Below the pieces are notes generated by a model. That model was not told where the DNA came from, ran no database searches, and was given only the letters and a program-made list of their open reading frames with translations. DNA of 64,000 nt from Elusimicrobia bacterium UBA4817 (lineage in GTDB: Bacteria; Elusimicrobiota; UBA8919), in the NCBI GenBank assembly GCA_002402375.1, contig DHFT01000039.1, positions 12,809-76,808 on the forward strand. The letters run 5' to 3'. Each line of letters starts with the position of its first letter. Within the stretch, counting starts at the first letter, position 1. Of this stretch, positions 676 through 37,358 are shown piece after piece. The position numbers and the translations under genes are program-made.

Positions 676-2019
676 TTATTCGTCAACTTTTTTCGTATAA
701 AGAATTGAGATTTTGTCTCTATAAATAATCTTCCATTTTTTTTCATCAATTTTCCTTTCCGGTTTCAAAAGTAAAAAATCCGTGTTTGCGAAGATTTCAA
801 ATTTCTCAAAATAATTTTTAAGGAAGAATACGGGATAAACGGTATCATATCTGCCGTCTATTGCTACTTTACACTGCGGATAGAGATGCCAAATAAGATA
901 TTCGCCCCAGTTGAATTCGTTAAAGATATTGCCGCCGAGTTTTTTTTCTTTTAGGAAATTCACCGCATTAGCGGGAAACCTGTCGCTATCCGTGATTTCA
1001 AGCGACGGATTTTTTAGGGTAGCAAAAAGCAGCAGGAAAAACGGAGAAAACGCCGAAATAGTTAAAATTATAACGGTTGCTCTTTTTTTGATGCTTTCAA
1101 AAAACGGGAGCAAAAACGGTGCTACTATGATTGCGAATACAGGGATATGTCTTGAATATCTACTTGCGAATAAAATACTGAGTAGTATAACCAAAGACGA
1201 AAGATATTTTTTTTGGAAAAGATAAATTAGTGAACTGACCGCAGAGATAATTGCAATAAATACGAATAAGTAGCCGACGAGCGGGAAATCTGACAGTGTA
1301 AATTTGCCCCATTCAGTGATGTATTTTGCGGTAAGCGGGTTTGTAAGAGCGCGAAATATTGCTTTCCAAAGATTAACGTGATAGGGCGTTATCAGTGATG
1401 CGAGCGGGAGTGCTATAATAATAAAAAGATGTTTTCGGTTATATTTTTCCAAAAGAAGAATTAGGGCGATTGCTAATCCTACGACAAATCCGCCGTGTGA
1501 GTTTGACCACAAAACCATTGTCGGGAACAGTAAAATCAGAAACGGTAGTTTTCCGGTTTTTTTGTATAAATGTAGTAAAAACCCGAAAATGGAAAGATAA
1601 AGATAAGTAAAAATCTGCGGTCTAAAAGATGTGCCTATAAAAATAAGTGATAAGGCAAAAAGATAGACAGGTAGAATTATTTTGTAATTTTTAGAGTAAA
1701 TCAGCAGAGTTAAAAACAGAAAACATCCGGTAAAAAATCCGATTAAAATTTTAAGAAATATCAGTCCTTTATCGCCGGACTTTTTATATGTTGAGTAAAG
1801 AATAACTTCCGATAACCATTCATGATTTACCCATTTATTGCCGTAAGCGGTATATGAATAAAAATCTATTTTCGGAATATTTTTTGTTTCAACAATTTGT
1901 TTGCCGAAAAAAAGATGTCCCCAGAAGTCCACATCCTGCCATCTGTTGAAAAAGAAAAAAGGGCTTGCTAAAAGCCCCGCAAAAAAAATAATTACAATTT
2001 GTTTTTTTATGTTAGTCAC
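676..2019 (-). CDS. polytopic membrane protein, possibly a GT-C-fold (ArnT/PMT-like) glycosyltransferase
   Basis: 447 aa with about 11 hydrophobic segments and a hydrophilic C-terminal tail; no sharper family assignment possible by eye. Confidence 0.35.
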   Translation of the reverse strand: MTNIKKQIVIIFFAGLLASPFFFFNRWQDVDFWGHLFFGKQIVETKNIPKIDFYSYTAYGNKWVNHEWLSEVILYSTYKKSGDKGLIFLKILIGFFTGCFLFLTLLIYSKNYKIILPVYLFALSLIFIGTSFRPQIFTYLYLSIFGFLLHLYKKTGKLPFLILLFPTMVLWSNSHGGFVVGLAIALILLLEKYNRKHLFIIIALPLASLITPYHVNLWKAIFRALTNPLTAKYITEWGKFTLSDFPLVGYLFVFIAIISAVSSLIYLFQKKYLSSLVILLSILFASRYSRHIPVFAIIVAPFLLPFFESIKKRATVIILTISAFSPFFLLLFATLKNPSLEITDSDRFPANAVNFLKEKKLGGNIFNEFNWGEYLIWHLYPQCKVAIDGRYDTVYPVFFLKNYFEKFEIFANTDFLLLKPERKIDEKKWKIIYRDKISILYTKKVDE

Positions 2020-4622
2020 TTTTGCTTTATAATTTTCTCAACGGATGATATCGCTTCATCCAGTTTTGAAATATCTTTTCCGCCGGCTTGTGCGAGGTCA
2101 ATTTTTCCGCCTCCTCCGCCGCCTACGATTTTTGATATTTCTTTTACAATTATTCTGGCATCAAATTTATCGGCGAGGTCTTTTGTAATTGACACAATGA
2201 GCGTCGGTTTTTCGTCAATAACAGAACCTAATACCACAATGCCTGATTTGATTTTGTTTTTCAGATTGTCGGAAGTGCTTCTGAGTTCATCTATGGATGT
2301 TATTTCCGTTTTTACCGCCAGTAGTTTTATGCCGTTGATTTCTTTAAGGTTTTTCAGTAAATCGTTTTCCTGTATTTTCGGTGTTTTTGAAATGCCCTTT
2401 TCAAGTTTTTTTTTATCGTCTGCAAGTTTTTGGAGTTTTGTAACGACTTCCGCCCGGGATGATTTCAATATCTCGGCCATTTCATCAATCGTTTCCCGCT
2501 GATTTTTCATAAAGTTATACGCTTCCATTCCGGTTATTGCTTCTATCCGCCGAAGACCGCTTCCGATACTGCCTTCGGATAAAATTATAAATTGTCCGAT
2601 TTCTCCGGTTGATTTACAATGAGTTCCGCCGCACAGTTCTACACTTTCAGGATTTTTTTCGTTTCCGGTAATGACGCACCGAACTTTCTCGCCGTATTTT
2701 TCGCCGAATAAAGCGAGCGCCCCCATTTTTTTTGCCTCGGCCACCGTCGTAATTTTTGTCGTCACTTTCAGATTTTCAAGAATTTTTTCATTAACATATT
2801 TTTCTATTAAAATCAGTTCCTCTTTTTTTAATTGTGTCGGATGGGAAAAATCAAATCTGAATCTGTCGTCGCTGACTTGTGAGCCGCGCTGAACGATATG
2901 GGTGCCGATAATTTGTCTTAAACTCTTATGCAAAAGATGAGTAGCGGTATGATTTCGCATAATGTTTTTTCTTCTTTCAAGAGCAATTTCGGCTCCAACC
3001 GTTTCGCCCGTTTTGATAATGCCTTTTATGATTTTTGCTCTGTGGATGATAAGGTTTTCAACCGGTTTCTGCGTATCAATAATTTCTACCTGACTTTGGA
3101 CTTCGGACTTCGGACTTCGGACTATTAACCTGCCCCTATCCCCAACCTGTCCGCCCGCTTCCCCGTAAAAAGGCGTCTCTTTTAGGATTATTTCCACCTC
3201 ATCGCCTTCGTTTGCCTGTTCAATAATTTTTCCGTCTTTTACTATTGCGGCTATTTTGGTTTTTGTTTTTGTCTCATCGTAGCCGGTAAAAACGGTATCT
3301 GCGAATTTTTTGTGAAGTTCAAAATAATTGCTCATATCAATATCTCCCGAACCTTTCCACGAAGTTTTGGAACGATTTTTTTGTTTCTCCATTTCTTCTT
3401 CAAACCCCTTGTCGTCTATAGATATTTCAGATTCAGCCAGAAGTTCTTTTGTTAAATCAAACGGGAAGCCGTAAGTATCATATAGTAAAAATGCATCTTT
3501 CCCGGAAATTGTTTTTCTGGATTTTTTTAATTCTTCAAGCATTTCAATCCCGCGCTCCAGCGTCATTAAAAATTTTTCTTCCTCCATTTTTATTATTCTT
3601 GCTATGTACTCGCGATTCAAATCCAGTTCAGGATATGCCGGTTTCATCGTCTCAACCACTTCAACTGCGATTCTGTAAAGGAACGGTTTGTCCATCTGCA
3701 ATTTTTTGCCGTGAGTAATTGCTCTTCTCAGGATTCTTCTTAAAACATAACCTCTTCCTTCATTGGACGGTAAAATGCCGTCGGAAATAAGAAATGTGAT
3801 TGCTCTCGCGTGGTCAGCAATTATTTTGGTAGATATATCATTTTTAATATCAGACAGGTTTTTTATAAAATCAATAATTCTTTTAAGCTCGTCGGTTTCA
3901 AAATTTGTTTTTGCCCTCTGAACCACCGCCGCCAGCCGTTCAAGTCCCATCCCGGTATCAATATTTTTTTGCGGAAGATTTTTTAATGTGCCGTCTGCTT
4001 GTTTGTCAAATTGCGTGAATACGAGGTTCCATACCTCAATATACCTGTCGCAGTCGCACCCCGGGCCGCAGGTTTTTTTGCCACAGCCGTTTCCTGTTCC
4101 CGTATCGTATAAAATTTCGGAACAGGGTCCGCAGGGACCGGTTTCTCCCATCTGCCAGAAGTTTGACGCCTCGCCTAATTTTACGATTTTGTTTAAAGGC
4201 AGGATTTTTTCCCAGATTTTGTATGCCTCGTCGTCATCTTTGTAGACGGAAGCGTAAAGTTTGTCCTTATCAAGTTTAAGTTCAACGGTCAGAAATTCCC
4301 ACGCCCACAAAATCGCTTCTTTTTTGAAATAATCGCCGAATGAAAAATTACCGAGCATCTCAAAAAACGTAAGATGTCTTGCGGTATGTCCGACATTTTC
4401 AATATCGGATGTCCTGAAACATTTCTGGACGGACGTCGCCCGCTGGTAATCGCTTTTGATTTTCTGCCTGCCTAAAAAATAATTTTTGAACTGCACCATT
4501 CCCGCCGATGTAAAAAGCAGCGTCGGGTCGGAAGAGGGCACCAGCGAGTCGCTCTTAAAAACGGTATGTTCTTTTTCTTTAAAAAACCTCAAAAATTTTT
4601 GTCTGATTTCGTTTGTAGTCAT
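2016..4622 (-). CDS. alaS: alanine--tRNA ligase
   Basis: 868 aa; N-terminus 'EIRQKFLRFFKEKEHTVFKSDSLVPSSDPTLLFTSAGMVQFK', class II catalytic core, editing domain (HxxxH), C-terminal GGGGG segment. Confidence 0.95.
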   Translation of the reverse strand: MTTNEIRQKFLRFFKEKEHTVFKSDSLVPSSDPTLLFTSAGMVQFKNYFLGRQKIKSDYQRATSVQKCFRTSDIENVGHTARHLTFFEMLGNFSFGDYFKKEAILWAWEFLTVELKLDKDKLYASVYKDDDEAYKIWEKILPLNKIVKLGEASNFWQMGETGPCGPCSEILYDTGTGNGCGKKTCGPGCDCDRYIEVWNLVFTQFDKQADGTLKNLPQKNIDTGMGLERLAAVVQRAKTNFETDELKRIIDFIKNLSDIKNDISTKIIADHARAITFLISDGILPSNEGRGYVLRRILRRAITHGKKLQMDKPFLYRIAVEVVETMKPAYPELDLNREYIARIIKMEEEKFLMTLERGIEMLEELKKSRKTISGKDAFLLYDTYGFPFDLTKELLAESEISIDDKGFEEEMEKQKNRSKTSWKGSGDIDMSNYFELHKKFADTVFTGYDETKTKTKIAAIVKDGKIIEQANEGDEVEIILKETPFYGEAGGQVGDRGRLIVRSPKSEVQSQVEIIDTQKPVENLIIHRAKIIKGIIKTGETVGAEIALERRKNIMRNHTATHLLHKSLRQIIGTHIVQRGSQVSDDRFRFDFSHPTQLKKEELILIEKYVNEKILENLKVTTKITTVAEAKKMGALALFGEKYGEKVRCVITGNEKNPESVELCGGTHCKSTGEIGQFIILSEGSIGSGLRRIEAITGMEAYNFMKNQRETIDEMAEILKSSRAEVVTKLQKLADDKKKLEKGISKTPKIQENDLLKNLKEINGIKLLAVKTEITSIDELRSTSDNLKNKIKSGIVVLGSVIDEKPTLIVSITKDLADKFDARIIVKEISKIVGGGGGGKIDLAQAGGKDISKLDEAISSVEKIIKQK

Positions 4623-5148: not shown

Positions 5149-6279
5149 TTATCCGATAATATCAAAATAATTATCCTTAGTTATAACGGTAAATTTAGAA
5201 TTTTTATATGTTTCAACAAAATCTTTCGGCGGTTTTACGCCTTTTGCTTTCCATTTGCATTCAAAACCCCAAAGACATCCAGCCCTTTCTTCAACAAAAT
5301 CAACCTCTTTCTGGTCGTAAGTCCTCCAGAAATATTTATTGCAATGAATATTTTTATAATTTAATTTTTTAATTCTTTCCGAAATACAATAATTCTCCCA
5401 TAATTTTCCTATGTCATCCCGCATAGTAATACTATTATAATTTGAAATAATAGCGTTGCGAACACCGTTGTCCCAAAAATAATATCGCGGTGTTTTTGTA
5501 TATTCCTTCCTTAAATTCCTGCTGAAACCGTATAATGAAAATAACACATAAGATTTTTCAAGTAATTCAAGATACCTCATCACCGTTTTTTTATTTGCAT
5601 TTAAGTTATTAGCGAGTTCAGAATATGAAATATCGTTACCGATTTGGAATGCTATAAGTCGTAATAAATTAAAAATGAATAAAGAGTTTTTGAGATTGTC
5701 CAATTGCAAAATATCTCTCAATAAATAACCGTCTCTTATTGATTCAAGCAGTTCTTTCTTTTCTTTTAAGGATTTTGCCGTCAATACCTGCGGATACATT
5801 CCATATATCAATCTGTCCTCTAAATTTTCCTTGTTTTTCAGAAAATCCTGATAATTGTTTAATTCTAATTGTGATATGGGATAAAAATAATAGAACTTAC
5901 TTCTCTCCACCAGAGGTTCTCCTATTTTGTTTTTTAAGTCAAATGAGGAAGAACCGGAAACAAAAACTGAAATTCCCGGGATATTGTCAACAATAAGTTT
6001 TAGATTGAGTCCGATGTTGGGTATTTTCTGGGCTTCGTCTATAAAAAGATATTTATAACCGGCTGTAAACTTTTCAAGAATGCTTAACATCTGACTTGAT
6101 AATATTTCTAACACATCTAAATTTTCACCATTTACCATTAGAACAGGTTTGTTTTTTAATTTCTCTTTCACCGAATTCATTAGCACGGTCTTACCGGTTC
6201 TTCTGGCACCGAAGAGTCCGATGACTTTGCCTGCCTTTAGAGACGATAGTATCTGATTTTCAATAAATCTGGGTATCAT
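5149..6279 (-). CDS. AAA+ ATPase with DUF4143-type C-terminal domain (COG1373-like)
   Basis: 376 aa; Walker A 'GARRTGKT'; N-terminal AAA domain followed by the extension typical of DUF4143 ATPases. Confidence 0.7.
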   Translation of the reverse strand: MIPRFIENQILSSLKAGKVIGLFGARRTGKTVLMNSVKEKLKNKPVLMVNGENLDVLEILSSQMLSILEKFTAGYKYLFIDEAQKIPNIGLNLKLIVDNIPGISVFVSGSSSFDLKNKIGEPLVERSKFYYFYPISQLELNNYQDFLKNKENLEDRLIYGMYPQVLTAKSLKEKKELLESIRDGYLLRDILQLDNLKNSLFIFNLLRLIAFQIGNDISYSELANNLNANKKTVMRYLELLEKSYVLFSLYGFSRNLRKEYTKTPRYYFWDNGVRNAIISNYNSITMRDDIGKLWENYCISERIKKLNYKNIHCNKYFWRTYDQKEVDFVEERAGCLWGFECKWKAKGVKPPKDFVETYKNSKFTVITKDNYFDIIG

Positions 6280-6339: not shown

Positions 6340-7851
6340 TTAATGACGGAGATGGCGCATGCCTGTGAATACCATTGAGATTTTATGCTCGTTGCAGACG
6401 GTTATTGATTCGTTATCTTTTACCGAGCCGCCGGGCTGAATAATTGCTTTTACGCCGATTTTTGCTGCTTCGTTGACGACATCTTTGAACGGGAAAAATG
6501 CGTCGGAGGATAAAACAAGCGGTAGACGGTAGACGGTAGACGGTAGACGGATTAAGTTCATTTTCATTTTTGCGATTTTTAGTGAGTCAATCCTTGACAT
6601 TTGGCCGCCGCCGATTCCTACCGTTCGGGTGCCTCTGGCAAGGACGATTGCATTTGATTTTACATATTTTGCGACGGTAAAAGCAAATTTTAACGATTCC
6701 AATTCTTCTTTTGCCGGTTTTGTCTTTGTAACAATTTTTAACTTGTCAAAAATTTTGCTGTCCTTTTCCTGAACAAGAAAGCCGTCGGAAATACTGCGGA
6801 ACTCAAGCGATTGAGCAAGTGAGCGATTAAGCGAGTGAGTTAAAACTCTTAAATTTTGTTTTTGCGAAAATATTTTCAGCGCATCTTTTGAATAATTCGG
6901 CGCAATAACACACTCGGTAAAAATTTTTATTACGTCTCTTGCGGTTCTGCCATCCACGATTTTATTAAACGCTACAATTCCGCCGAATGCCGAAACGGGG
7001 TCGCAGGCAAGAGCATTTTTGTAAGCATCAAAAATAGTTTTAGCGGTTGCAACTCCACAAGGATTATTATGCTTTACAATCACACAAGCAGGTTTTTCAA
7101 ATTCGCAAACCAGATTAAAAGCAGAATCCATATCAAGATAATTGTTATAAGAAAGTTCTTTCCCTTGCAGTTGTTTTACACTTCCGACTTCCGACTTCCC
7201 ACTTCCGATATGGTAAACTGCCGCTTTCTGATGAGGATTTTCACCGTACCGCAAGTCGGAAAATTTTTTAAGTCCAACTGTTATTTTTTCTGGAAACTGC
7301 TCGTCGGTAAAATAATTTGAAATAATAGAATCATAATAAGCGGTATGGCTGAATGCCTTTGCCGCAAGTTTTTTTCTGAATGAAAAATCTATCTTTGAAC
7401 TTTTAATATTATCTATGATGTTAGAATAATCTTTCGTGTCGCAGACCGCCAGAACATTCTCAAAATTTTTTGCGGCCGCGCGGAGCATCGCCACTCCGCC
7501 GATATCTATATTTTCAACTGAAGGTTTTTCTTCAAACGGATAAAGATTTATAACGACGATATCAATCGCGTTAATTTTGTGTTTTTTCAACTCGTCAATA
7601 TGTTGTTTTGTCTTTTTTGCCAGTATTCCCGCGTGGATTTTCGGATGCAGTGTCTTTACCCGCCCGTCAAGGATTTCCGGAAAGCCAGTAATTTTTTCAA
7701 CCGAAACGACGGAAATTCCCACTTTTTTAAGAAACGTTACTGTCCCGCCGGTTGATATAATTTTGACATCCAATTTTTTAAGTTCTTTTGCAAATTCAAC
7801 AATTCCGGTTTTGTCCGATACGCTGATTAATGCTGTTTTAATAGTTTTCAT
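6340..7851 (-). CDS. purH: bifunctional AICAR formyltransferase / IMP cyclohydrolase
   Basis: 503 aa; MGS-like N-terminal domain (KTALISVSDKTG…GGT) and C-terminus 'SDAFFPF…IIQPGGS…MVFTGMRHLRH' matching PurH. Confidence 0.95.
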   Translation of the reverse strand: MKTIKTALISVSDKTGIVEFAKELKKLDVKIISTGGTVTFLKKVGISVVSVEKITGFPEILDGRVKTLHPKIHAGILAKKTKQHIDELKKHKINAIDIVVINLYPFEEKPSVENIDIGGVAMLRAAAKNFENVLAVCDTKDYSNIIDNIKSSKIDFSFRKKLAAKAFSHTAYYDSIISNYFTDEQFPEKITVGLKKFSDLRYGENPHQKAAVYHIGSGKSEVGSVKQLQGKELSYNNYLDMDSAFNLVCEFEKPACVIVKHNNPCGVATAKTIFDAYKNALACDPVSAFGGIVAFNKIVDGRTARDVIKIFTECVIAPNYSKDALKIFSQKQNLRVLTHSLNRSLAQSLEFRSISDGFLVQEKDSKIFDKLKIVTKTKPAKEELESLKFAFTVAKYVKSNAIVLARGTRTVGIGGGQMSRIDSLKIAKMKMNLIRLPSTVYRLPLVLSSDAFFPFKDVVNEAAKIGVKAIIQPGGSVKDNESITVCNEHKISMVFTGMRHLRH

Positions 7852-10149: not shown

Positions 10150-12632
<2,483 letters not shown>

Positions 12633-13604: not shown

Positions 13605-13708
13605 AACACCCCCATTTAACGGCTAACGGCGTGAGAAAGTGAAAAAGAGAGAAAGTAAGAAAGTTAAAACCTTTTTACCTTTTCACGCCTTTTGCCTTTT
13701 CTATTCTT

Positions 13709-14911: not shown

Positions 14912-15527
14912 AAAATCCCGCCTTTTTTAGAGTTTCAAGTGTTATTTTATTTTTTTCTTTTTGTTGCAAAACATATTTTGCAAGAATGTCGGTTTCCAAA
15001 TTAACGGTATCTCCGTTTTTTTTTTCTTTAAGTGTCGTGTTATTTAATGTATGAGGAATTATTGCCGTTGAAAATGAATTTGTTTTTTTTTCCGCTACCG
15101 TTAAACTGATTCCGTCAATAGCCACCGAACCCTTTTCTGCGATATATTTTGACAGATTTTCAGGTATTGAAAATTGCCAAATTTCCGAATTCCCCGATTT
15201 TTTTATTTTTAATATTTTTCCGGTTCCGTCAATGTGTCCCGTAACGAAATGTCCGCCTAATTTACCGTCGGATTTTAATGCTCTTTCAAGATTAATAATG
15301 CTTCCAATTTTTAATTCTCCCAAATTTGTTTTTTTTAAGGTTTCTTCGGAAATGTCAGCCGTGAACTCGTGAACTCGTGAACTCGCTAAATCGCTAACTG
15401 TCAAACAAATACCGCTAACACAAATACTGTCGCCAATGTTTATATCATCAAGTTTTGTCTCGACGGTAATTTGTGTTTTATTTATTTTTTTTACAGTTCC
15501 TAAATCTTCAATTATTCCAGTGAACAT
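14904..15527 (-). CDS. ribE: riboflavin synthase alpha subunit
   Basis: 'MFTGIIEDLGTV' N-terminus and the internal duplicated lumazine-binding repeat. Start moved to the internal ATG. Confidence 0.9.
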   Translation of the reverse strand: MFTGIIEDLGTVKKINKTQITVETKLDDINIGDSICVSGICLTVSDLASSRVHEFTADISEETLKKTNLGELKIGSIINLERALKSDGKLGGHFVTGHIDGTGKILKIKKSGNSEIWQFSIPENLSKYIAEKGSVAIDGISLTVAEKKTNSFSTAIIPHTLNNTTLKEKKNGDTVNLETDILAKYVLQQKEKNKITLETLKKAGFYD

Positions 15528-16545: not shown

Positions 16546-17608
16546 TTAAATATCCCTCAAACAAAAAATCTTCTTCTATTTTTTCTACAGATATATTTTT
16601 AACGTCCGCGGCATTTTTTACGTATTCCGTACTGTTAATAATTTTAGGACAGATAAAAAACATAATTTTATCAACTAATTTTTCTTTAAGAAATGATTTG
16701 GCAACCGTTTCTCCGCCTTCAACAATCAGCGACGAAATACTCATTTTGCCGAGTTTAACCAGCAATTTTTTAATATCCAGAAAATTGTTTTTTAATGGGA
16801 GTTCAATTATCCCTATACCCATTTTTTTAAGTTTTTCTTTTTTAACTCTGTTTGAATTTATTGATGTTGCAATTATCGTTTTTGACTTACCGTTTAGTAC
16901 ATTTGTACTAAATGGAATTTTTAATCCGGTATCAAGAATTACTCTGACAGGATTTTTTCCTTTTCCGTGTGATGTCAGTTTCGGGTTGTCTTTTAATACA
17001 GTATTTATTCCAACCAGTATAGCATCGGTTCGGCTTCGTAATTGATGAACGGTTTCTCTGGATTTTTCAGAACTGAGCCATTTTGAATCTCCGCTCTCCG
17101 TTTTTGTTTTACCGTCTAAAGAGTATGCCATTTTAAGAATTACAAAGGGCGTTTTTGTTTTGATGTATTTTATGTATGTCTCGTTTAATTTTTTTGCTTC
17201 TTTTTCCATCACACTCACTTTACACTTTACACCTTTCACTTTCAACTGTCTTATCCCTTTCCCGCCAACCGCCGGGTTCGGGTCTTTTGTTGCGATAACA
17301 ACTTTTTTTATGCCGCTATTTATTATCTGCGGTACACAAGGCGGAGTTTTTTTATTGTAATGACAGCATGGCTCCAAGTTAACATACATCGTCGCATCTT
17401 TCGGGTTTTTACATTTTTTTAATGCCTCAACTTCCGCATGTGGCCCGCCAAAATATTTATGATAACCTGTTGAAAGAATTTTTCCGTTTTTTACGATTAC
17501 ACAACCGACCATAGGATTCGGACTGACTTTACCTTGTCCTTTTTTAGCAAGTTTTATTACCAATTGCATAAATTTTCTGTCTTCGTCTGTGTAATCTGTT
17601 TTTTTCAT
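16538..17608 (-). CDS. ribD: bifunctional diaminohydroxyphosphoribosylaminopyrimidine deaminase / 5-amino-6-(5-phosphoribosylamino)uracil reductase
   Basis: 356 aa; CMP/dCMP-type deaminase 'HAEVEAL…PCCHY…PPC' N-terminus and RibD reductase C-terminal domain. Confidence 0.9.
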   Translation of the reverse strand: MKKTDYTDEDRKFMQLVIKLAKKGQGKVSPNPMVGCVIVKNGKILSTGYHKYFGGPHAEVEALKKCKNPKDATMYVNLEPCCHYNKKTPPCVPQIINSGIKKVVIATKDPNPAVGGKGIRQLKVKGVKCKVSVMEKEAKKLNETYIKYIKTKTPFVILKMAYSLDGKTKTESGDSKWLSSEKSRETVHQLRSRTDAILVGINTVLKDNPKLTSHGKGKNPVRVILDTGLKIPFSTNVLNGKSKTIIATSINSNRVKKEKLKKMGIGIIELPLKNNFLDIKKLLVKLGKMSISSLIVEGGETVAKSFLKEKLVDKIMFFICPKIINSTEYVKNAADVKNISVEKIEEDFLFEGYLNV

Positions 17609-17877: not shown

Positions 17878-18797
17878 TTAAATTTTTTGGAAAAAGAAAT
17901 ATAAGTGGTTCTGTCAAACACGCTGTTGACGGCACTTGCAAAATCAAATCCGAAATCCTTCCATAGTATTCCGATCCCGAAATTTGTTCCGTTAATTTTT
18001 CCCGCTTTGTTGAGATATCCGCCTCTTAAAAAAAGCCAGTTGAGGTAAGAGTACTCGCCGCTGAATCTCGGACGGAATATATCATCTTTTTCCCGTAAAA
18101 AATCAAAAGATACGTCAAAATTATTTTCGCGGTTATTTAACAGGGTATATGACAGTCCGCATCGGACGGAACTTGGCAGGTCGTCTTTTACAGGGTCGTT
18201 GGAATAAATGACCTTTGTTCCGAAATTTTCGCCGGAAAATCCGAGTTTAAGATTTCTTACAAAATCAACTTTATATAAAATTCCGAAATCAATTGCTTGG
18301 GCGTTCCCGATAGTTTTTCCAAAAATGGGATTTTTTTCATATCTGTAAATGTATTTTAGATTTATTCCGAAGGAGAGATTGTGAAAAAGATTTCTTCCAT
18401 AGGCGACAGAAAACGCCCAGTCGTTCCATATCAGTTCGCCCATATCGTAGTTAAATTCGTCGGTAACGGGTATCGGGGTAATTCTGTAACTTAATATGCC
18501 GATAGCCATGGCGCCATGTTTTTTTAGCGACAACAGTCCGCCGAGATACTGCATAACGGCATCGCCTTGAGGCGCCGGCGAATGGGAAAAAGTTATTTCG
18601 CTTTCCGAATCCGCAATGCCTGCCGGATTATGAAAAAATGATGATGCGTCTAATTTTGTTGCGGCGGATGTTTCAGCTAAAGAAATTATTCTTGCGCCTC
18701 CTGCCAGTTTCAGAAAATCGGCGCCGGTGTGAGTGGAAGCGTAGAGGCAATTAAAAATTAAAAATGGAAAATTAAAAATTAAAATGATTGTTTTCAT
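17874..18797 (-). CDS. FadL/PorV/PorQ-like outer-membrane beta-barrel protein (T9SS-associated?)
   Basis: 307 aa, signal peptide, N-terminal 'GADFLKLAGGARIISLAETSAATKLDASSFFHNPAGIA' FadL/PorV-like motif, alternating beta-strand pattern; tandem paralogue of the next gene. Confidence 0.5.
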   Translation of the reverse strand: MKTIILIFNFPFLIFNCLYASTHTGADFLKLAGGARIISLAETSAATKLDASSFFHNPAGIADSESEITFSHSPAPQGDAVMQYLGGLLSLKKHGAMAIGILSYRITPIPVTDEFNYDMGELIWNDWAFSVAYGRNLFHNLSFGINLKYIYRYEKNPIFGKTIGNAQAIDFGILYKVDFVRNLKLGFSGENFGTKVIYSNDPVKDDLPSSVRCGLSYTLLNNRENNFDVSFDFLREKDDIFRPRFSGEYSYLNWLFLRGGYLNKAGKINGTNFGIGILWKDFGFDFASAVNSVFDRTTYISFSKKFN

Positions 18798-19741
18798 TAA
18801 AATTTGCAGTTCAGCGTAAATCTGTTAACGTCGGTCAATTTTTCATGTGAGGTGAATGAGTAGTCAATGGAGATTATTTTTGCCGAAAATCCCGCACCGA
18901 AAGAATAGTTCTGCAATGTTGTATATCCCGCCCGCAGTTTGAAATTTTTGACGGCGTTAAGTTCAACTCCCAAATTACCGTTCAAGATATTTTCTCTCTG
19001 TCTAACCCCGTCAACGGACAAAAGCAGTTTATCAAAATTCCTGCTTATTCCCAGTCGCAATTCCGACGGTAAAACGTCCTTTTCGCCGCCGAATGAAATT
19101 TTACTGCCTACATTTCTTATACAAAAACCGAAATCAAAAGGCAGGTTGTAGCCGGAATATAATAATCCCAAATCCGCCGCAATTGCCGTTGCCGATTCCC
19201 CTGCCAGTTTCTCGTTCAGATATTTTACGGTTATTCCTGCATCCAAAGGATAGATTTTTCTTGCGTAGGAAATACCGGCGACCGCGTCGCTGTTTAAGAA
19301 TTCGTCCCGTCCTATTCCGCGTTCATCTCTTTCAACATCTTTTGATGACAGATATTTTAATGTTATGCCGATGTTTCCTTTAATTTTTTGGATGTATGTT
19401 GAGAACTTCATATCCTCAAGATTGACATCTTCAAAATATTCCGAATGCGAAAAAGAAAAATTATAGTCGGGCAGGTTTGAAATTGCTGCGGGATTAAAAT
19501 CCAACGCTCCAAGATTTTCCGATAAGGATGTGACCGCTTCCGCCATGGCGGATGTTTTTGCCTCGGGGCTGATTCGTAGCAACAGTCCGGCAGATGTTCC
19601 GGTGTCAGAGGCAGAGAACAAAGTTAAAGGTATAAGGTTAAAGGTTAAAATAAAGCAGATGAAAAATGAAAAATGAAAAGTTGAAATTTTGGCAGTATTT
19701 AGACCTTTAACTTTTAATTTTAACCTTCTTTTTATTTTCAT
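18797..19741 (-). CDS. FadL/PorV/PorQ-like outer-membrane beta-barrel protein (paralogue)
   Basis: 314 aa, signal peptide, 'GTSAGLLLRISPEAKTSAMAEAVTSLSENLGALDFNPAAIS' motif, C-terminal Phe; start overlaps the downstream gene. Confidence 0.5.
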   Translation of the reverse strand: MKIKRRLKLKVKGLNTAKISTFHFSFFICFILTFNLIPLTLFSASDTGTSAGLLLRISPEAKTSAMAEAVTSLSENLGALDFNPAAISNLPDYNFSFSHSEYFEDVNLEDMKFSTYIQKIKGNIGITLKYLSSKDVERDERGIGRDEFLNSDAVAGISYARKIYPLDAGITVKYLNEKLAGESATAIAADLGLLYSGYNLPFDFGFCIRNVGSKISFGGEKDVLPSELRLGISRNFDKLLLSVDGVRQRENILNGNLGVELNAVKNFKLRAGYTTLQNYSFGAGFSAKIISIDYSFTSHEKLTDVNRFTLNCKF

Positions 19742-21279
19742 TTTTTTATGACTGTAATCTTTCCTTTACAGGAATCAGTTTGGGTTTTTGCTGCATAAAA
19801 ATATATTCCCGATGCAACAGTAGAACCATTTTCATTTTTGCCGTCCCATATAACGGAAGTTCCGCTGCCGTCAATTTCTCTGACGAGGTTTCCTTCCAAA
19901 TTATAAATTTTTATGTTTATCACAGAGTTATCCGGGAAATTTTTTATTGTCAGATTTCCGGTTGAAGGGTTATAAGGGTTCGGTGCGTTGACGACATAAT
20001 TTAATGACTGCGGTCCGTAGGTCACTTTTGAATAATAATCAGCCAAAAACTCATCCCAGTTTGTCGCCTGACAGAAACTTAAATTTTCATAATTACCGTC
20101 GGGATTATTCCAAATTTCCCAATCATCTTTTGTTTTCGGAAAGTTTATAGAAAGTCCGTGTGAATTTTTATGGGTGCTTCCAACTCTGTTTGCGAGCACA
20201 CAATCATTAATGGAGTCCATTACATTGCTCGCAGAGTTTCTCAAAGACGCCGAGTCCAAATCGGGGTTTTGTTCAATAATATAGGCTAAATCATAAATGT
20301 CAATTCCGCCGTATTGAACATTGCTTGATTCACCGTAATAATCAACCGCATCTCTTGTAAGATATAAAGGAATAGTTTTTTTTGTTGAGATAAGTTGATA
20401 TGCAAAATTATCTATTGCCGCCGCCAACTCGCCGATTTTTGACAAATCCACTGCCGATGCGGTTCTTTTATCAAGCACTGAAGAAAAATAAGAAACTGCC
20501 TCGTCGGAATACGCCTTATCCCAGATGTCAACAATTTTTTGCGAGAATGTTTTCGGGTCATAATTCGGATTTGAAACAAGTTCCGTCAAAATTCCGTCAT
20601 AAGGCCAGCCGTATTCGTTTTCTTCGGAGGCAACCATATAGTTCGCAGAATCTTTTATCTGATATGCGATTTCAATTTGTGCCATAAGGCATGCGTCCAA
20701 TCCGATGATGTCAATATTTTTTCCGAGATATGTTTTTATCGTAGAAAGTGCGTTTCCGAGTTCCGCCGTTGTCAGATAATCATTGTCGTCGGTAGTATCG
20801 TCCCATGCTATTCCTTTTTTTAGTTTTGGTGATTTGGGCCACCATCCGCCTCCGTGATTCCACACGACAAGACAATAATTTTCCGCCGGATAATTCGCTA
20901 TTGTCCATGTTGAAAATACGACAAGCGTTGCGTGGTCGCCTGTGTTCAATTCATTTGTTGTTGCAGACGGAAGTAAATTTGCAATAGTTATTGTAGGCGT
21001 GTTTATTGTGAATGTGTCGGTATCGTTTTGTATTTTGTAAAGGTAAGTATTACCGTCGCCGTTTTTATCCGCAAGAACAATTATGTTTACATCAGTTGAA
21101 TTTGCGGCAACTTCCATTTTGTTTATGTCCCGTTTCAACTGGTCGCCTTTCAGTGATGTATCAAGAGAATTATCACCTGCGATGTAGACGATAAATGTCC
21201 ATTTTGCCGCGGATAAAAATGTGCTAAAAAATATGGACAGGCATAATACCTGTCCATATTTAAGAATTTTTTTTGTCAT
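19738..21279 (-). CDS. clostripain-like (C11) cysteine peptidase with T9SS C-terminal sorting domain
   Basis: Signal peptide; 'WTFIVYIAGDNSLD', His-Gly dyad 'VVWNHGGGW', catalytic Cys 'IGLDACLMAQIE'; C-terminal approx 80 aa 'KIYNLEGNLV…SGIYFYAAKT…KITVIKK' matching the Por-secretion CTD pattern. Confidence 0.75.
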   Translation of the reverse strand: MTKKILKYGQVLCLSIFFSTFLSAAKWTFIVYIAGDNSLDTSLKGDQLKRDINKMEVAANSTDVNIIVLADKNGDGNTYLYKIQNDTDTFTINTPTITIANLLPSATTNELNTGDHATLVVFSTWTIANYPAENYCLVVWNHGGGWWPKSPKLKKGIAWDDTTDDNDYLTTAELGNALSTIKTYLGKNIDIIGLDACLMAQIEIAYQIKDSANYMVASEENEYGWPYDGILTELVSNPNYDPKTFSQKIVDIWDKAYSDEAVSYFSSVLDKRTASAVDLSKIGELAAAIDNFAYQLISTKKTIPLYLTRDAVDYYGESSNVQYGGIDIYDLAYIIEQNPDLDSASLRNSASNVMDSINDCVLANRVGSTHKNSHGLSINFPKTKDDWEIWNNPDGNYENLSFCQATNWDEFLADYYSKVTYGPQSLNYVVNAPNPYNPSTGNLTIKNFPDNSVINIKIYNLEGNLVREIDGSGTSVIWDGKNENGSTVASGIYFYAAKTQTDSCKGKITVIKK

Positions 21280-21282
21280 TTT

Positions 21283-23316
21283 TTATTTTAATACAACCGC
21301 CCGTTTTGTTCCGATTTCTTTTCCGTTGACGGTGAGACGGTAATAATAAACGCCCCTGGAAAGTTTGTCGCCGGAATCATATTTTACAGAGTGTTCGCCT
21401 TGCGTCTGGTCTTCGTCAACAATGGTATCAACTTCCTGTCCCGCTACATTGTAAAGTTTGATGGATACCCTGCCGCCCTCCGGTATAAAATAATTAAATG
21501 TCGTCGCCGGGTTAAACGGGTTGGGATAATTCTGACCGAGCGTTGCCTGTTTTACGCCCCCGTCTTCAGATTCAACTTCATCATCAACATCACTTCTTGA
21601 TGTCGCATAAGAGGAGCCGACGGTTACCGTCGGTTGTTTGGAAATTGCCGTAAGTGTTCCGCCGTTTCCCGCTGTTCTTGTCGTAAATTTTGCCGTGCCT
21701 TCCGACGGTTGTGTGGTAAATTTGAGGTATGAAAGTTTTAACTTGTCGCCGCTTCCGTACGCGAGCCGGTCAGCGGGTATCCCTGTTATTGTAACTTTTT
21801 GCCCCGAAACAGAAGCCGTCAGTTTATATGATGTCGTCCGATATTTATAAATATACGCCTTGACATATCCCTTGCCTGTTGATGCTGTGTTTTGAGGCGA
21901 TGTCCATCCGGTCGGAATCGTTACCTCCGCCGTTCCGCTTCCGAGTGAGCCCGCTGCTGACGGCGTCAGAGTGTATGTTATTGATGTGTAATATGTGCTT
22001 GGTGCTACGCCTTTTTTGGAAAGTGATGTTGTTCCGCTTCCGTCAGCACCTGTTTGAGTTGAACCTCCGCCGCTTCCGAGGTTTCCCGCATAGTATCTGT
22101 TCAAGAAATCATCCCACTTGTTTGCCGATTCAGAACCGTACAAAATTGCAGATGTATAGGCACTATCATAATATGATTTTGTTTTCGGGAAATAAACGCA
22201 CATTCCGTAAGAACCGTATTTTGCCGTATCATTTCTCGGCGAGGTAAATCTTGTTTTTACAACTGCGTCGGTTACTGCGGTTTTTAACTCTGATGCCGCC
22301 GTCTGAATAGAAGAACTTGTAACCTTGCTTCGGACCTGTTCTGCAAATCTGTAGATATCAAGTCCGTAATAACCGTCTGATTCCGAATACGCCTTGCAGT
22401 TTTCTCTGGCGGATTTTATTGATGTTAATTGCGAGTTATCGTTCATCGCATCTGCAAACGCATTCAGTTTTAATACAAGGTTGCTGACTTTCGGTATATC
22501 AATTGCCGATTGTGTTATTGCTTCCGATGTCGGATATGATTCTGCATATTTGTTGACTATTGTTTCGCCAAGTTGTTTCGGTGTCGCCGTCGGATTTGTC
22601 GCAAGCCATGAAAGAATTGTGTCGTGAGGCCAGCCGTCGCCCGGTTCCGTCTCTTCCGAGCCGACCATTACACCGTCGGTAGTATTTATTACATTTCTTA
22701 ATTCGTAAGCAACTTCCAGATGTCCCATAAGGCAGGCATCCATACCGATTAAATCAAAAGTATGTGATGCATTCTGGATTGCTGTTCTTACTTCTTTCAT
22801 ATAAAGACAATCATCGTTGTTCCCGTCGTCCCAGCATATTGCTCTTTCCATCGGCGAAAAAGAAATTGAGCGGTCGCGCCATCCGCCGCCGTGATTCCAC
22901 AAAACGAGCGCATACCTGTCCGCCGGATAATTAAGCCACACCCATGTTATAAAATTTGTGAGGGTTGTCGGCGAGCCCATATTTGATTCGCCGAGGTCTT
23001 CAAGCGCGTTTGCTGTCGTCGGCGTCATACCTTTTGTCACTTTGAATCTTTTACATGTTTTCCAGTCGCCGTAAGTTGTATCATAACCGGATGCCCTGTC
23101 AAACTGGACAACGATGTTTATATCGGCGTTGCTTCCCACCTTTGCCATTTCCAGAAAATCATTTACACCGGCGTCTTCAAGATTGTTGTCGGCGTCCAGA
23201 TAAACGGCGTAAGTCCATTTTGCTTTTGCGAAACACGGATTAACGCAGATAACACCGCAGATTAACACAGATAAAAACAATCCTGCCAATCCTACTGTCC
23301 AAACCCTTTTCAACAT
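21283..23316 (-). CDS. clostripain-like (C11) cysteine peptidase with T9SS C-terminal sorting domain (paralogue)
   Basis: Signal peptide; 'WTYAVYLDADNNLE', 'LVLWNHGGGW', 'IGMDACLMGHLE'; Ser/Thr/Gly-rich middle region; C-terminal 'KLYNVAGQEV…RGVYYYRLTVNGKEIGTKRAVVLK' CTD. Confidence 0.75.
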   Translation of the reverse strand: MLKRVWTVGLAGLFLSVLICGVICVNPCFAKAKWTYAVYLDADNNLEDAGVNDFLEMAKVGSNADINIVVQFDRASGYDTTYGDWKTCKRFKVTKGMTPTTANALEDLGESNMGSPTTLTNFITWVWLNYPADRYALVLWNHGGGWRDRSISFSPMERAICWDDGNNDDCLYMKEVRTAIQNASHTFDLIGMDACLMGHLEVAYELRNVINTTDGVMVGSEETEPGDGWPHDTILSWLATNPTATPKQLGETIVNKYAESYPTSEAITQSAIDIPKVSNLVLKLNAFADAMNDNSQLTSIKSARENCKAYSESDGYYGLDIYRFAEQVRSKVTSSSIQTAASELKTAVTDAVVKTRFTSPRNDTAKYGSYGMCVYFPKTKSYYDSAYTSAILYGSESANKWDDFLNRYYAGNLGSGGGSTQTGADGSGTTSLSKKGVAPSTYYTSITYTLTPSAAGSLGSGTAEVTIPTGWTSPQNTASTGKGYVKAYIYKYRTTSYKLTASVSGQKVTITGIPADRLAYGSGDKLKLSYLKFTTQPSEGTAKFTTRTAGNGGTLTAISKQPTVTVGSSYATSRSDVDDEVESEDGGVKQATLGQNYPNPFNPATTFNYFIPEGGRVSIKLYNVAGQEVDTIVDEDQTQGEHSVKYDSGDKLSRGVYYYRLTVNGKEIGTKRAVVLK

Positions 23317-31118: not shown

Positions 31119-32579
31119 TCAAGGTTTTGCAGGCGGGTATTTTTCCAGCAGAGTAATAATTTCTTTATTTTTATATGCCTTTGCCTTATCCAGAGCAGTT
31201 TGTCCGTCGCTGTCTTTAGCGGTGGTATCTGCTCCGTTTTCAATCAATAATTTTGCACCCGCCGAGAAATCCTTTTTCGCGGCATACATAAGTGCGGTTG
31301 AACCGGTTATATCTTTTGAGTTAACATTCGCGCCTTTTTCAAGAAGTAATTTCACCGTTTCGGTTGAGTTTTTCTCCGCCGCCAGCATTAACGCGGATTT
31401 TTTGGAAATATATTTTAAGTTGACGTCTGCTCCCGCGTTTATAATGAGTGAGGATATATTTGAAAAATCATTATTTATGGCAACCGATAATGCCGTTTCA
31501 CCGGATTTGTTTTTTATATCAAGTTTCGCATTTTTGTCTATCAGTAATTTTGCCACATCAAAAGAATTGTTTTTTAAGGCAATAAGAAGCGGGGTATCGC
31601 CGTCTTTGTTTTTTTTGTTGAGATTTGCTTTTTTGTCAATCAGTGATTTCGCCGTTTCGTAATAATTTTTCTTTGCTGCGAGCATAAGAGCAGTTTGGCT
31701 TTCATTATTTGTAATGTTTATTTCCGCCCCGTTTACTATAAGCATGCCTGCAATTTCCGGAGAATCATTTTTTAACGCAATCAAAAGTGCCGTATCGCCG
31801 TTTTTGTTTTTTTGATTCAGGTTTGCCCCGTTTTCCAAAAGAAATTTTATCGCATCAGAAGAGTTTTTCCCGGCCGCCCACATCAGCGGCGTTAATCCGT
31901 AATTATCTTTTGCATTTATTTCCGCATTTTTTTTGAGCAGCAGTTTTACCGTATCCGTTGCATTTTTTGCCGCCGCCATCATTAAAGGTGTTTCGCCGAA
32001 TGAGTTTCTGCCATTAACATCGGCTCCCTTTTCAATAAGCAATTGGGCAAAACCGGAGTAATTTTGTCCGGCGACCGTCGTTAAAAGCGTATTGCCGTAA
32101 CCATCTTTTACGGTTATATCTGCACCCTGTTTAATCAGTAATTCGGCGGCATCCATAGAATTGTTGTTTGCCGCTATCGTCAAAGGTGTCTTGTCAAACA
32201 GATCTTTTGCGTTGACGTTTACGCCTTTTTCAATCAGCAGTTCGGCGACATCTTTTGAATTGTGAAGTGCGGCAATTCCCAGAGTTGTCATACCCAAAGA
32301 GTTCACGGCGTTGACATCCGCGCCTTTTTCTATGAGCAATCTCGCTATATCAATAGCATTTGTCGTCGCTGCGAGCATAAGCGGCGTTTCGCCGAATGAA
32401 TTTTTTGCATTTACATCAGCGCCTTTTTCTATCGCTTTTTTTATTTTTACCGTGTTTCCGCCGGTAATATCTTCCTTTGAAATTACAGGTACTGCGGCGG
32501 TAAGATAGCCGGTTGAAAATAAAAAAATAATTATAAACGATAATATTTTTCTGTTTATTTGGAGTATAATTTTAACCAT
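31119..32579 (-). CDS. secreted ankyrin-repeat protein (about 13 ANK repeats)
   Basis: 486 aa; N-terminal signal/TM segment followed by tandem 33-aa repeats 'G.TPLM.AA..N….KLLI.KGADVNAK'. Confidence 0.85.
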   Translation of the reverse strand: MVKIILQINRKILSFIIIFLFSTGYLTAAVPVISKEDITGGNTVKIKKAIEKGADVNAKNSFGETPLMLAATTNAIDIARLLIEKGADVNAVNSLGMTTLGIAALHNSKDVAELLIEKGVNVNAKDLFDKTPLTIAANNNSMDAAELLIKQGADITVKDGYGNTLLTTVAGQNYSGFAQLLIEKGADVNGRNSFGETPLMMAAAKNATDTVKLLLKKNAEINAKDNYGLTPLMWAAGKNSSDAIKFLLENGANLNQKNKNGDTALLIALKNDSPEIAGMLIVNGAEINITNNESQTALMLAAKKNYYETAKSLIDKKANLNKKNKDGDTPLLIALKNNSFDVAKLLIDKNAKLDIKNKSGETALSVAINNDFSNISSLIINAGADVNLKYISKKSALMLAAEKNSTETVKLLLEKGANVNSKDITGSTALMYAAKKDFSAGAKLLIENGADTTAKDSDGQTALDKAKAYKNKEIITLLEKYPPAKP

Positions 32580-32625: not shown

Positions 32626-34296
32626 TTACTTTCTTAAAAATTTTCTGTCAAGTTCGTCTTTTGTGATTTTGATGACCGTTGGTCTTCCGTGAGGGCAGGT
32701 ATACGGATTTTCACATTCAAACAATTCTTCCAAAAGTTTTATTGATTCCGCATCCGTTAGTTTATCGCCTGATTTTATGGCGGTTTTGCAGGCGGTTTTT
32801 ATTATATCGTCAAGCAGTGTTGCGGACGACTCGCTTATTTCACCGACTTTTTTCTTTCTTATTATTTCGTTGATTATATTAACCGCGGAGATGTCGCCGA
32901 GGACAGCCGGTACGGACTTTAATGCGAAAGAGTTCTTACCGAATTCCTCCAGTTCAAAACCGATTTGCGTCAAATACTCTTTTAATCCGAAAAGTATATT
33001 AAATTCCTTCGGAGAGAGTTCAATGTTAACAGGCAGCAAAAGATTTTGAATTTCCTGTTTTCGGGCATTGACATTTTTTCTGAATTTCTCGTAAAGAATT
33101 TTTTCCTGCGCGGCGTGCTGGTCAACAATAAAAAGATTTTCGTTCTCCTGTGCCAGTATGTACAATTCAAAAATTCTTCCGATGTGCCGCAATGCCGGTT
33201 TTTTTTCTGTAAATTGTGATTGTATTTCTTTTGTGATATATTCAGTCGGTTGCGTTGAAATGCGTTCATCGGATTTTTGATATGCCGTATAGGAAATTTC
33301 AGGTATCGTTTCTTTTGTAACAATGTGATTCCGTATCGTCTGGTAAATCACCGAATAAATTGCTCCCTCGTCATTAAATTTAATTTCCCTTTTTGTCGGA
33401 TGGACGTTCACATCAATTATATCCGGTTTGATTTCAAACGCTAAAAAAACCGCAGGATTTTCATTGCCATTCAAAAACTCGCGATAACCGTTTTTAACGG
33501 CACTTAAAATCATTCTGGAGTTTATAGGTCTTTTATTAACCGATATAAAAATTCTGTTTCTGCTCAAAAATTTTAATTCGGGTTTGCTTATAAAACCGTA
33601 AATTGAAATTTTTTCGTGTTGCAGGTGTAGTTCAACAAGTTCATTAAGAAATTCATTCCCGAAAATCTGCGCTATGCGAATTTTTAAGTTGGTTGCCTGC
33701 GAATAAGAAAAAAGTTCTTTACCGTCGGATGTTAAAGAAAATGCGACATTAAAATTAACTACAGCATAATCCGTTAAAATAGAAATTATTTTGTTTTTTT
33801 CAGTGTTGTCCGATTTAAGAAATTTCAGCCGAGCGGGAATATTCCGGAAAAGATTTTTTACCTCAACAGTTGTGCCGTCGGGACAACCCTTGTCCTGCAA
33901 ATTTAATAGTTTGCCGTCCTCAATTTCCAATGAAAAGCCTGTTTTTGTATTCGGTGGCTTTGTGGTGATTAACATTTGCGAAACGGATGCTATTGAAGGC
34001 AATGCTTCACCTCTGAAACCCAGAGTATGGATTTTGCTCAAATCCGTTATGTCGGAAATTTTGCTTGTTGAGTGCCTTTCAATAGACAACACTGCATCTT
34101 CTTTTGACATTCCGCATCCGTCATCTGAAACGGCTATGAGTTCTCTGCCGCTGTTCTTTATTTTAACCGTTATATTTTTTGCGCCGGCATCCAGAGAGTT
34201 CTCAACAAGTTCTTTTATGACGGACGCGGGTCTTTCAATTACTTCGCCCGCCGCAATTTTGTTTATCAAATCTAACGAGAGAACTTTTATTTTCAT
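32626..34296 (-). CDS. mutL: DNA mismatch repair protein MutL
   Basis: 556 aa; GHKL ATPase motifs 'ELVENSLDAGA', 'DDGCGM', 'LGFRGEAL'; C-terminal dimerisation domain. Confidence 0.9.
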   Translation of the reverse strand: MKIKVLSLDLINKIAAGEVIERPASVIKELVENSLDAGAKNITVKIKNSGRELIAVSDDGCGMSKEDAVLSIERHSTSKISDITDLSKIHTLGFRGEALPSIASVSQMLITTKPPNTKTGFSLEIEDGKLLNLQDKGCPDGTTVEVKNLFRNIPARLKFLKSDNTEKNKIISILTDYAVVNFNVAFSLTSDGKELFSYSQATNLKIRIAQIFGNEFLNELVELHLQHEKISIYGFISKPELKFLSRNRIFISVNKRPINSRMILSAVKNGYREFLNGNENPAVFLAFEIKPDIIDVNVHPTKREIKFNDEGAIYSVIYQTIRNHIVTKETIPEISYTAYQKSDERISTQPTEYITKEIQSQFTEKKPALRHIGRIFELYILAQENENLFIVDQHAAQEKILYEKFRKNVNARKQEIQNLLLPVNIELSPKEFNILFGLKEYLTQIGFELEEFGKNSFALKSVPAVLGDISAVNIINEIIRKKKVGEISESSATLLDDIIKTACKTAIKSGDKLTDAESIKLLEELFECENPYTCPHGRPTVIKITKDELDRKFLRK

Positions 34297-34736
34297 GAGT
34301 AATGTCCTTTTGCAATTCTCTGGCAGTGCTCAAAATAACTGCATCCTTTTTTGCAAACAGGTTTTTCGCCGAGAAGAATTCTTGTTTCGCAGGAGTCAAA
34401 ATCATCAGCCATCCTGTTAATTTTTTTCACAATATCGTCAGGCATGTTTATAAATTGAATTCCTATTACATATGAACCCTCTTTGTTTTCGCATCTTACG
34501 ACCCTGCTCTTAACATTGTCAATTTTTAGGTCTTTTAAGTCAAAAGAAATTAAAACATTTGAACCTTCGGCAAGTGCTGAAAAAGTCAGCAATGCCATTC
34601 CGCCCGCCGAAAGATTTGCCATAATCGCGGGACTTGCTCTTCCGGCTTTTGAACCCCTCGTGCGGATTAAAACCGGTTTTATCAGATGATACAGAACCGG
34701 AAATCTTTTGGATTTTCTTTTTTCAATGTTGTTCAC
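34293..34736 (-). CDS. PilZ-domain protein with a C-terminal Cys cluster
   Basis: 147 aa; 'RKSKRFPV' RxxxR-type c-di-GMP switch, 'DLSAGGMAL' (D/N)xSxxG motif; C-terminal CxxxC…C…C. Confidence 0.6.
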   Translation of the reverse strand: MNNIEKRKSKRFPVLYHLIKPVLIRTRGSKAGRASPAIMANLSAGGMALLTFSALAEGSNVLISFDLKDLKIDNVKSRVVRCENKEGSYVIGIQFINMPDDIVKKINRMADDFDSCETRILLGEKPVCKKGCSYFEHCQRIAKGHYS

Positions 34737-37323: not shown

Positions 37324-37358
37324 AAAAAAAGGTTTTTCAAATTTTAACAGGAAATCCA

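Follow-up and report, generated by a model that had tools for sequence, protein, structure and literature searches.

Heptanucleotides have been described as the most abundant class of long simple sequence repeats (SSRs, units of 5–11 nt) in prokaryotes; in coding regions units that are a multiple of three are likeliest, and non-triplet units are disfavoured (Mrazek, Guo and Shah 2007, as relayed in PMC4679880 and PMC4692102). Here we describe arrays of 7- and 8-nt units situated, in frame, inside purH and other essential genes in a stretch of 64,000 nt from Elusimicrobia bacterium UBA4817 (assembly GCA_002402375.1, contig DHFT01000039.1). This whole stretch is called the window below, and coordinates given without a contig name refer to it; it has 37.7% G+C and nearly all its genes are on the minus strand. 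The arrays are prokaryotic heptanucleotide long SSRs; what is new is that they are coding, fixed in position and located in essential genes.

With the long SSRs described earlier these arrays share the extension of tandem heptamers beyond chance length, the enrichment in particular lineages, the dominance of period 7 and length polymorphism by whole units (here 21- and 24-nt alleles at sites 1 and 3 of the three repeat sites in purH); the mechanism proposed for the known repeats is slippage. The differences are that 7- and 8-nt units stand in frame in essential genes, that the sites are conserved across genera and that alleles differ by three units. Dispersed families of heptamers have been described in Xanthomonas (GGGAATC), Nostoc (GGGGAYT and STRR) and Beggiatoaceae (TAACTGA) (PMC4692102, PMC4679880). 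There, genome-characteristic units appear at many loci, in either orientation, and some form inverted pairs; here, too, units are used in either orientation and an inverted pair is present, and within the 64 kb of the window the CTTCCGA family recurs at three loci. However, the dispersed families are mainly intergenic, under-represented in coding sequence and G-rich, and they follow one consensus, whereas the arrays described here are mostly coding, have no G-tracts and follow several unit families.

A position-fixed heptanucleotide site with alternative motif classes is known in the P6b element of the Nostoc trnL intron (PMC3488679). Degenerate heptamers at one conserved site, copy-number variants between strains and paired arms, resembling those of the ribBA–ribH spacer in the window, are features in common; P6b differs in being part of a non-coding RNA, in a cyanobacterial group I intron, with no reading-frame constraint. 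The amino-acid tandem repeats of the Borg type (PMC9879509) have units that are a multiple of three, whereas here the unit has 7 or 8 nt and a 7-residue period comes only from three units. Contingency loci likewise have non-triplet repeats in open reading frames (ORFs), with slipped-strand mispairing altering their length, but their units are of 1–5 nt, they occur in surface, restriction-modification and virulence genes or the promoters of these, they vary among sibling cells and they toggle the frame; the arrays considered here are in housekeeping genes, none of their alleles shifts the frame and near-identical contigs are alike. In the open-access literature we found no description of in-frame 7- or 8-nt arrays at conserved sites of essential genes, or of switching from 7- to 8-nt units; Lin and Kussell 2012 contained nothing on heptamers, and a 2025 tree-of-life survey of short tandem repeats nothing specific to them.

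Excess of 7- and 8-nt arrays and their origin in DNA

Arrays were called by Tandem Repeats Finder (TRF) and domains by Pfam. Exact period-7 runs with at least 13 matches were observed five times in the window and not once in 40 dinucleotide shuffles of it. In coding sequence, period 7 gave five runs with at least 12 matches and period 8 gave one, with none in 200 codon shuffles of the 54 coding sequences; an earlier note on this DNA had suggested such a comparison with shuffled codons. A mismatch-tolerant scan of the window found no arrays with periods 4–6 and 9–12, only with 7 and 8.

The same preference was seen in related DNA. The nearest public sequences are contigs of Elusimicrobiota metagenome-assembled genomes or metagenomes with 72–84% PurH identity (81–84% for the closest, none being from the same species). 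Eleven such contigs (L002, L081, L083, L161, L162, L164 and L167–L170 among them) gave a clade set of 165 kb; loci of other phyla retrieved with the identical query gave an outgroup set of 1.84 Mb. TRF reported 29 period-7 and 9 period-8 arrays in the clade set, with no arrays of period 5, 6 or 9, against 2 period-7 and 4 period-8 arrays in the outgroup set. The density of arrays in the window is ~60 times that of the outgroup set. Copy numbers of the clade arrays were between 3.0 and 5.4 units, intergenic arrays included. In ~60 kb examined from distant Elusimicrobiota (55–60% identity) there were zero arrays. Chance does not account for the excess of arrays, and neither the reality of the feature nor its statistical footing is in doubt.

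An Omnitrophota contig, L017, carries the array AGCTGTC ×4.4, in frame, in a folC-like gene; the phenomenon is therefore not restricted to one phylum. In the same folC-like gene there is also a 23-nt tandem repeat, GGCACCAGGTGCCAAATGCAACA, of ~2.6 copies, which is translated through, and an 8-mer array, CCGTTATC ×4.1, directly follows the purH stop codon of this contig (repeats of L017 at 2815–2875 and 3218–3248).

The purH gene of the window (6340–7851, minus strand, 503 aa; Pfam MGS and AICARFT_IMPCHas, E = 6e-122; orthologues found) contains three repeat sites, all on the minus strand. Site 1 (6520–6550; TRF CGGTAGA ×4.4, 100% matches, sense unit TCTACCG) encodes RLPSTVYRLP immediately ahead of the SDAFFPF motif. 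Site 2 (6806–6839) was called as a 16-mer ×2.1 with 88% matches and encodes SLNRSLAQSLEF; it has a degenerate 8-nt sub-period (×3.8, 72% matches). Site 3 (7180–7208; TRF ACTTCCG ×4.1 with one mismatch, sense unit GGAAGT(G/C)) encodes GSGKSEVGS, read through as GSGKSEVGSV. The earlier note had listed these three repeats, and its coordinates hold for all of them; its description of site 2 as agcgatt(g/a) ×4 was loose, as just two of the four 8-mers match. The translation of the ORF confirms that all three are read through in frame, as the note had stated. The note's placement of the repeats between conserved blocks agrees with the orthologue alignment, where the three sites are variable columns, and with an AlphaFold2 model that puts them between secondary-structure elements; as the confidence of the model is only moderate (mean pLDDT 66, mediocre), their assignment to loops leans mainly on the alignment variability.

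Several observations show at which level the repeats are formed. Every unit is translated in each of the three frames. The array of ligA (12032–12061, minus strand; TRF, sense unit CTTCCGA ×4.3, perfect), located inside the adenylation domain just upstream of the EVRGE-encoding sequence, has a unit that, rotation aside, is exactly the reverse complement of the one at purH site 3, as noted earlier; thus one unit in opposite orientations encodes unrelated peptides in the two genes. In the AATTAAA arrays of alaS in L081 and L167 one unit reads AATGAAA, exactly where a TAA stop would occur. Arrays are also found between genes. The process at the DNA level postulated in the earlier note is supported by each of these observations: the periodicity belongs to the DNA and not to the encoded protein.

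Selection at the protein level for linkers of 7-residue repeats would be another way to account for coding arrays, and the encoded peptides, in which Pro, Ser, Thr and charged residues abound, are suited to loops. Still, a protein repeat of 21 nt needs no 7-nt periodicity, one unit is used in both orientations and the alaS array needs a stop-avoiding unit. The existence of intergenic arrays speaks against this account as well as against artefacts of assembly, and for the latter it also matters that arrays recur at orthologous sites across independent NCBI, JGI, ENA and Logan assemblies. We regard protein-level selection and artefact, taken together, as extremely improbable.

Unit families are shared by unrelated loci of the window. 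The CTTCCGA family is present at three loci, in ligA, as the reverse complement in purH and as a one-mismatch variant in alaS (array 3092–3123 in the ORF 2016–4622, both on the minus strand; Pfam tRNA-synt_2c; TRF, sense unit GTCCGAA ×4.6), and AATTAAA is present at several; the remaining arrays of these 64 kb have unrelated units. For the four GC-rich units of the window the probability of such sharing is P ~8e-4.

Fixed sites with changing units among relatives

Orthologues with a PurH identity as low as ~72% (L167) carry repeats at these same positions, and at 65–69% identity a 7-residue periodicity is still detectable in the protein. At purH site 1 nine relatives have 7-mer or 8-mer arrays of other units: instead of TCTACCG of the window we found CTTCCCA in L081, CTTCCCG in L170, TYTATCG in L168, TCTCCCA in L083, ATCCCCA in L167 and a degenerate CTTACCA in L002. 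Site 3 has four units in L002, L164 and L168, and TCAAATC ×4.6 in L170. The ligA units are CTTCCGA in the window, TCTACCC in L081 and TCTACAC in L161, with CTTCCYA also among relatives, while alaS of the relatives has the GAAGTCN family or AATTAAA at identical columns. The riboflavin synthase gene ribE of the window carries 8-mer arrays (15356–15397, minus strand; TRF, sense GTTAGCGA TTTAGCGA GTTCACGA ×3); the units in the clade are GTTCACGA, TTTCACGA or TTTCGCGA, and each substitution is carried by every copy, so that in L081 and in L161 the ribE substitutions are common to all copies within the genome.

Identity of units was 0.90 within an array and 0.61 at orthologous positions between genomes, the latter value resembling the identity of third codon positions (0.55–0.75). 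Each genome thus holds its own homogenized unit at shared sites, which is concerted evolution. The sites of the arrays are old, their sequence being kept young.

The earlier note had taken the repeats for possible lineage-specific insertions and had regarded similar repeats at the same positions of distant orthologues as a sign of ancestral sequence. Such repeats do exist, and they tell against recent insertion; the process at the DNA level is left standing, because copies are homogenized within each genome (0.90 versus 0.61). Loop lengths are also usually unchanged: loops that bear arrays have the length of the non-repeat loops in more distant orthologues, and the two arrays present in the window only, at purH site 2 and in ribD, stand in place of orthologous sequence that is just as long. 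The explanation of arrays as net insertions was rejected on this ground. The ribD array (17216–17242, minus strand; TRF, sense unit GTGTAAA-like ×3.9) is built on a TGTAAAG core common to relatives (only TGTAAA in L161), and this shared core, together with the equal length, points to homogenization in place.

Among the clade genomes compared, the repeat at purH site 2 was found in the window genome only; relatives have three other alleles, of equal length or longer by 3 nt. One of these alleles (L162 ~11010–11045, L168 and L167) is, within coding sequence, a perfect palindrome whose stem has 12 bp, CTATTCGTGTAT-CCGC-ATACACGAATAG. Compensatory changes in L167, CTTTTCGTGTTT..AAACACGAAAAG, leave the palindrome perfectly paired. 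Across the genomes, the site 2 alleles are out of step with overall purH distance.

The alaS arrays of L081 (15644–15675) and L167 (15803–15840) are identical at 35 of the 36 aligned nucleotides, the AATGAAA unit included, and the alanyl-tRNA synthetases of L081 and L167 are each just ~76–87% identical to that of the window. Such near-identity of the arrays suggests purifying selection after fixation, or segment exchange.

Length alleles differ by three units. At purH site 3, L081, L161 and L083 each lack exactly 21 nt; in L083 a single GGAAGTG unit stands beside the same flank as the four units of the window. The expectation of the earlier note that copy number would change in frame-preserving steps is thus borne out, with 1-unit and 4-unit alleles exactly 21 nt apart. 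At site 1, L162 has just one unit and is shorter by 21 or 24 nt. In L164, ligA has no array and is 15 nt shorter. In pairwise comparisons of clade genomes, the indel lengths 21 and 24 nt stand out as peaks; such comparisons recount events, however, and only ~4–5 per length are independent, some of them outside arrays. Unit length can switch at a site: L169, L164 and L161 have 8-mers at site 1, for a net gain of 3 nt, and at the ribE site the array of L162 is made of 7-mers and those elsewhere of 8-mers. Every allele in the 11 genomes is in frame. The two sets of near-identical contigs from different samples (L162 and L163; L164, L165 and L166) showed no indels between members, and hypervariability of the arrays was rejected.

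Non-triplet repeats in ORFs are well established as the classic architecture of phase-variable contingency loci, in which one-unit changes switch a gene on and off (compare the review PMC11868660). Here the hosts are the core housekeeping genes alaS, ligA, purH, ribD and ribE, the arrays are in the middle of genes, in-frame alleles are present throughout the 11 genomes and near-identical contigs do not vary in length; a role in phase variation is therefore very improbable.

The arrays could also be functional elements of DNA or RNA under selection of their own, such as protein-binding sites or secondary structures. Sites are indeed conserved over long divergence, and in the Nostoc trnL intron the P6b hairpin is made of degenerate heptanucleotide repeats (PMC3488679). 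In the ribBA–ribH spacer of the window two inverted 8-mer arrays form a hairpin (13631–13700, minus strand; TRF and RNA folding, −24.3 kcal/mol, z = −1.5), and the counterpart in L081 (4180–4260) has AATTAAG/TTAATTC heptamers on the arms of a hairpin (z = −2.5); such a pair of intergenic arrays was thus seen in two genomes. The ligA array adjoins an inverted copy of its own unit. On the other hand, the sequence of the unit is not conserved per site, which rules out a fixed binding motif; arrays have contracted or have been lost without compensation in L162, L164 and L081; and coding arrays fold no better than shuffled sequences, as seen at purH site 2 (z = −0.4). We consider selection on the arrays as functional elements improbable.

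The length of the ribBA–ribH spacer is 72–125 nt across the clade, and in L161 it has no arrays. The hairpin in it may be a terminator or attenuator within the rib operon. The inverted copy in ligA is the heptamer GGAAGTC, an exact inverted complement of the unit, located 9 nt past the CTTCCGA array within the conserved EVRGE-encoding sequence (12020–12040, minus strand); L162 has a comparable inverted match of 6–7 nt. The unit may have arisen by a strand switch with the GGAAGTC copy as its template.

Proposed template switching and possible writing of repeats

We lean towards the explanation that short-range template switching (slipped-strand misalignment), together with selection on the reading frame, maintains old, position-fixed arrays of 7- and 8-nt units. 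We infer the switching mechanism, as well as the reason for the 7–8 nt step, from comparisons of sequences. The arrays would be microsatellite-like tracts, located in one intergenic hairpin and in those loops of housekeeping proteins that tolerate sequence change, where template switching during replication or repair would be frequent relative to point mutation. If copying goes out of register and then returns to it, a unit would be overwritten by its neighbour, with homogenization as the outcome and length unchanged; if there is no return, whole units would be gained or lost and the length would change. In coding sequence, selection on the frame would leave just 1 + 3n copies visible: as changes by three units (21 or 24 nt) alone keep the frame, the visible states would be 1, 4 or 7 units, and ~4.4 units are observed. 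Contraction of four units to one, followed by addition of three units of 7 or 8 nt, would switch the unit length with the frame kept. The palindrome at purH site 2 could be a product of the same perfecting process acting on an inverted repeat.

Ripley and the Lovett laboratory, using reporter assays in E. coli, reportedly observed template-switch mutagenesis as rare events at quasi-palindromes and at direct repeats. By analogy, the perfection of imperfect repeats from a misaligned template would fit both the homogenization in place and the palindrome at purH site 2; the difference is that here template switching would be the dominant force acting on loops over evolutionary time. MutS in E. coli recognises loops of 1–4 nt. 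As 7-nt slippage loops exceed this range, an intact mismatch repair would leave the arrays alone. Loss of mismatch repair (a mutator lineage) was rejected, since both genes are complete in the window: mutS, with domains I–V, is at 34723–37359, adjacent to full-length mutL at 32626–34296.

There are, however, observations that weigh against template switching. Simple slippage does not account for a step of 7–8 nt instead of 5, 6 or 9, although the length of polymerase–DNA contact has been proposed as the source of the heptamer step (Mrazek et al. 2007, as relayed in PMC4679880), the sole proposal on this point that we came across. It is not explained how one unit became four in essential genes (alaS, ligA) without frameshifted intermediates of two or three units, nor why intergenic arrays also have close to 4–5 units and never more than 5.4. 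Unit families common to unrelated sites (P ~8e-4) are not predicted by slippage of local sequence. The absence of length variation among near-identical contigs implies a slow turnover on that timescale, and a slippage event was never directly seen.

Because slippage leaves the step, the jump from one to four units, the ceiling of 5.4 and the shared families unexplained, we keep in consideration, as an unlikely but live explanation, that the arrays are written in bursts, with several units of 7–8 nt (about three extra) laid down per event, either by reiterative 'stuttering' synthesis intrinsic to a replicative or repair polymerase or by a dedicated, unrecognised enzyme. Such a process would seed a preferred family of heptamers at many loci, and it is possible that it is also behind the arrays of Xanthomonas, Nostoc and other cyanobacteria, Beggiatoaceae and Omnitrophota. 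It would agree with the sharing of families by non-orthologous sites in both orientations, with the narrow range of copy numbers (3.0–5.4) that extends to arrays between genes, with the presence of 1- and 4-unit alleles in the absence of intermediates, and with the same in-frame ×4.4 array in the folC-like gene of the unrelated Omnitrophota contig. Intergenic heptamer arrays of Xanthomonas likewise favour four units, a marked preference that was ascribed there to G-quadruplex formation (PMC4692102); a GGG run is present in none of the TRF units of the window and the clade.

Other facts are less favourable to writing in bursts. No candidate enzyme was found, though no search for one was made. 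Selection on the frame suffices to explain the missing coding intermediates. At one and the same site, units of different genomes differ by single substitutions, as is expected under drift and homogenization, and the ribD array arose in place from a pre-existing imperfect repeat of two units. Thus template switching with selection on the frame is still the explanation that we favour.

The clade lets the birth of arrays, their homogenization, contraction and re-expansion by three units and switching from 7 to 8 nt be read against a known ancestral loop, and this system could turn the predominance of heptamers, reported in 2007, into a testable question. If writing in bursts were true, no natural record of it would be cleaner than the coding arrays, since their outcomes are filtered by the reading frame. 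Loops that owe their sequence to a process at the DNA level and not to protein function are tolerated in essential enzymes, and array segments mislead alignment, phylogeny and tests of selection if handled as ordinary coding sequence.

Remaining arrays and neighbouring features

Most of the arrays with G and C in their units are inside alaS, purH, ligA, ribE and ribD. The flanks of the four GC-rich arrays were inspected and no common motif was found beside them, the sole feature being the inverted copy of the unit at ligA. An AT-rich array, AATTAAA ×5.1 (18749–18784; TRF, no strand assigned), is located at the junction of two ORFs without a Pfam match; L081 and L167 have the same unit in their alaS arrays and in intergenic ones. 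Two adjacent AT-rich arrays, GTTAAAG ×3.9 and ATGAAAA ×3.0 (19623–19679; TRF, no strand assigned), are near the 5′-end of the ORF 18797–19741.

The arrays are unevenly distributed: 10 of the 12 period-7 and period-8 arrays are within the first 20 kb of the window (1–20500 as compared with 20500–64000). Later housekeeping genes (smc, mutL, mutS and others) have no arrays despite similar strand and composition.

The interval between purH and alaS (5149–6279) is a variable slot. In the window it holds an ORF of 376 aa that is ATPase-like by appearance; L161 has a PDDEXK_5 gene there, L162 has SACS, a Y1 transposase with a DnaA_C domain and DUF4143, L167 has AAA_14/DUF4143 and an MFS transporter, and L081 has ~2.6 kb of unrelated DNA. 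Indels of 29–40 nt between the window and L081, L161 and L167 correspond to GC-rich hairpins, CCCCCGA...TCGGGGG, present in some genomes of the clade and absent from others; these may be terminators or miniature mobile elements. Two tandem paralogues of clostripain-family (C11) peptidases and a 486-aa ankyrin-repeat protein are encoded at 19738–23316 and 31119–32579, the first of the paralogues having a C-terminal type IX secretion sorting domain.

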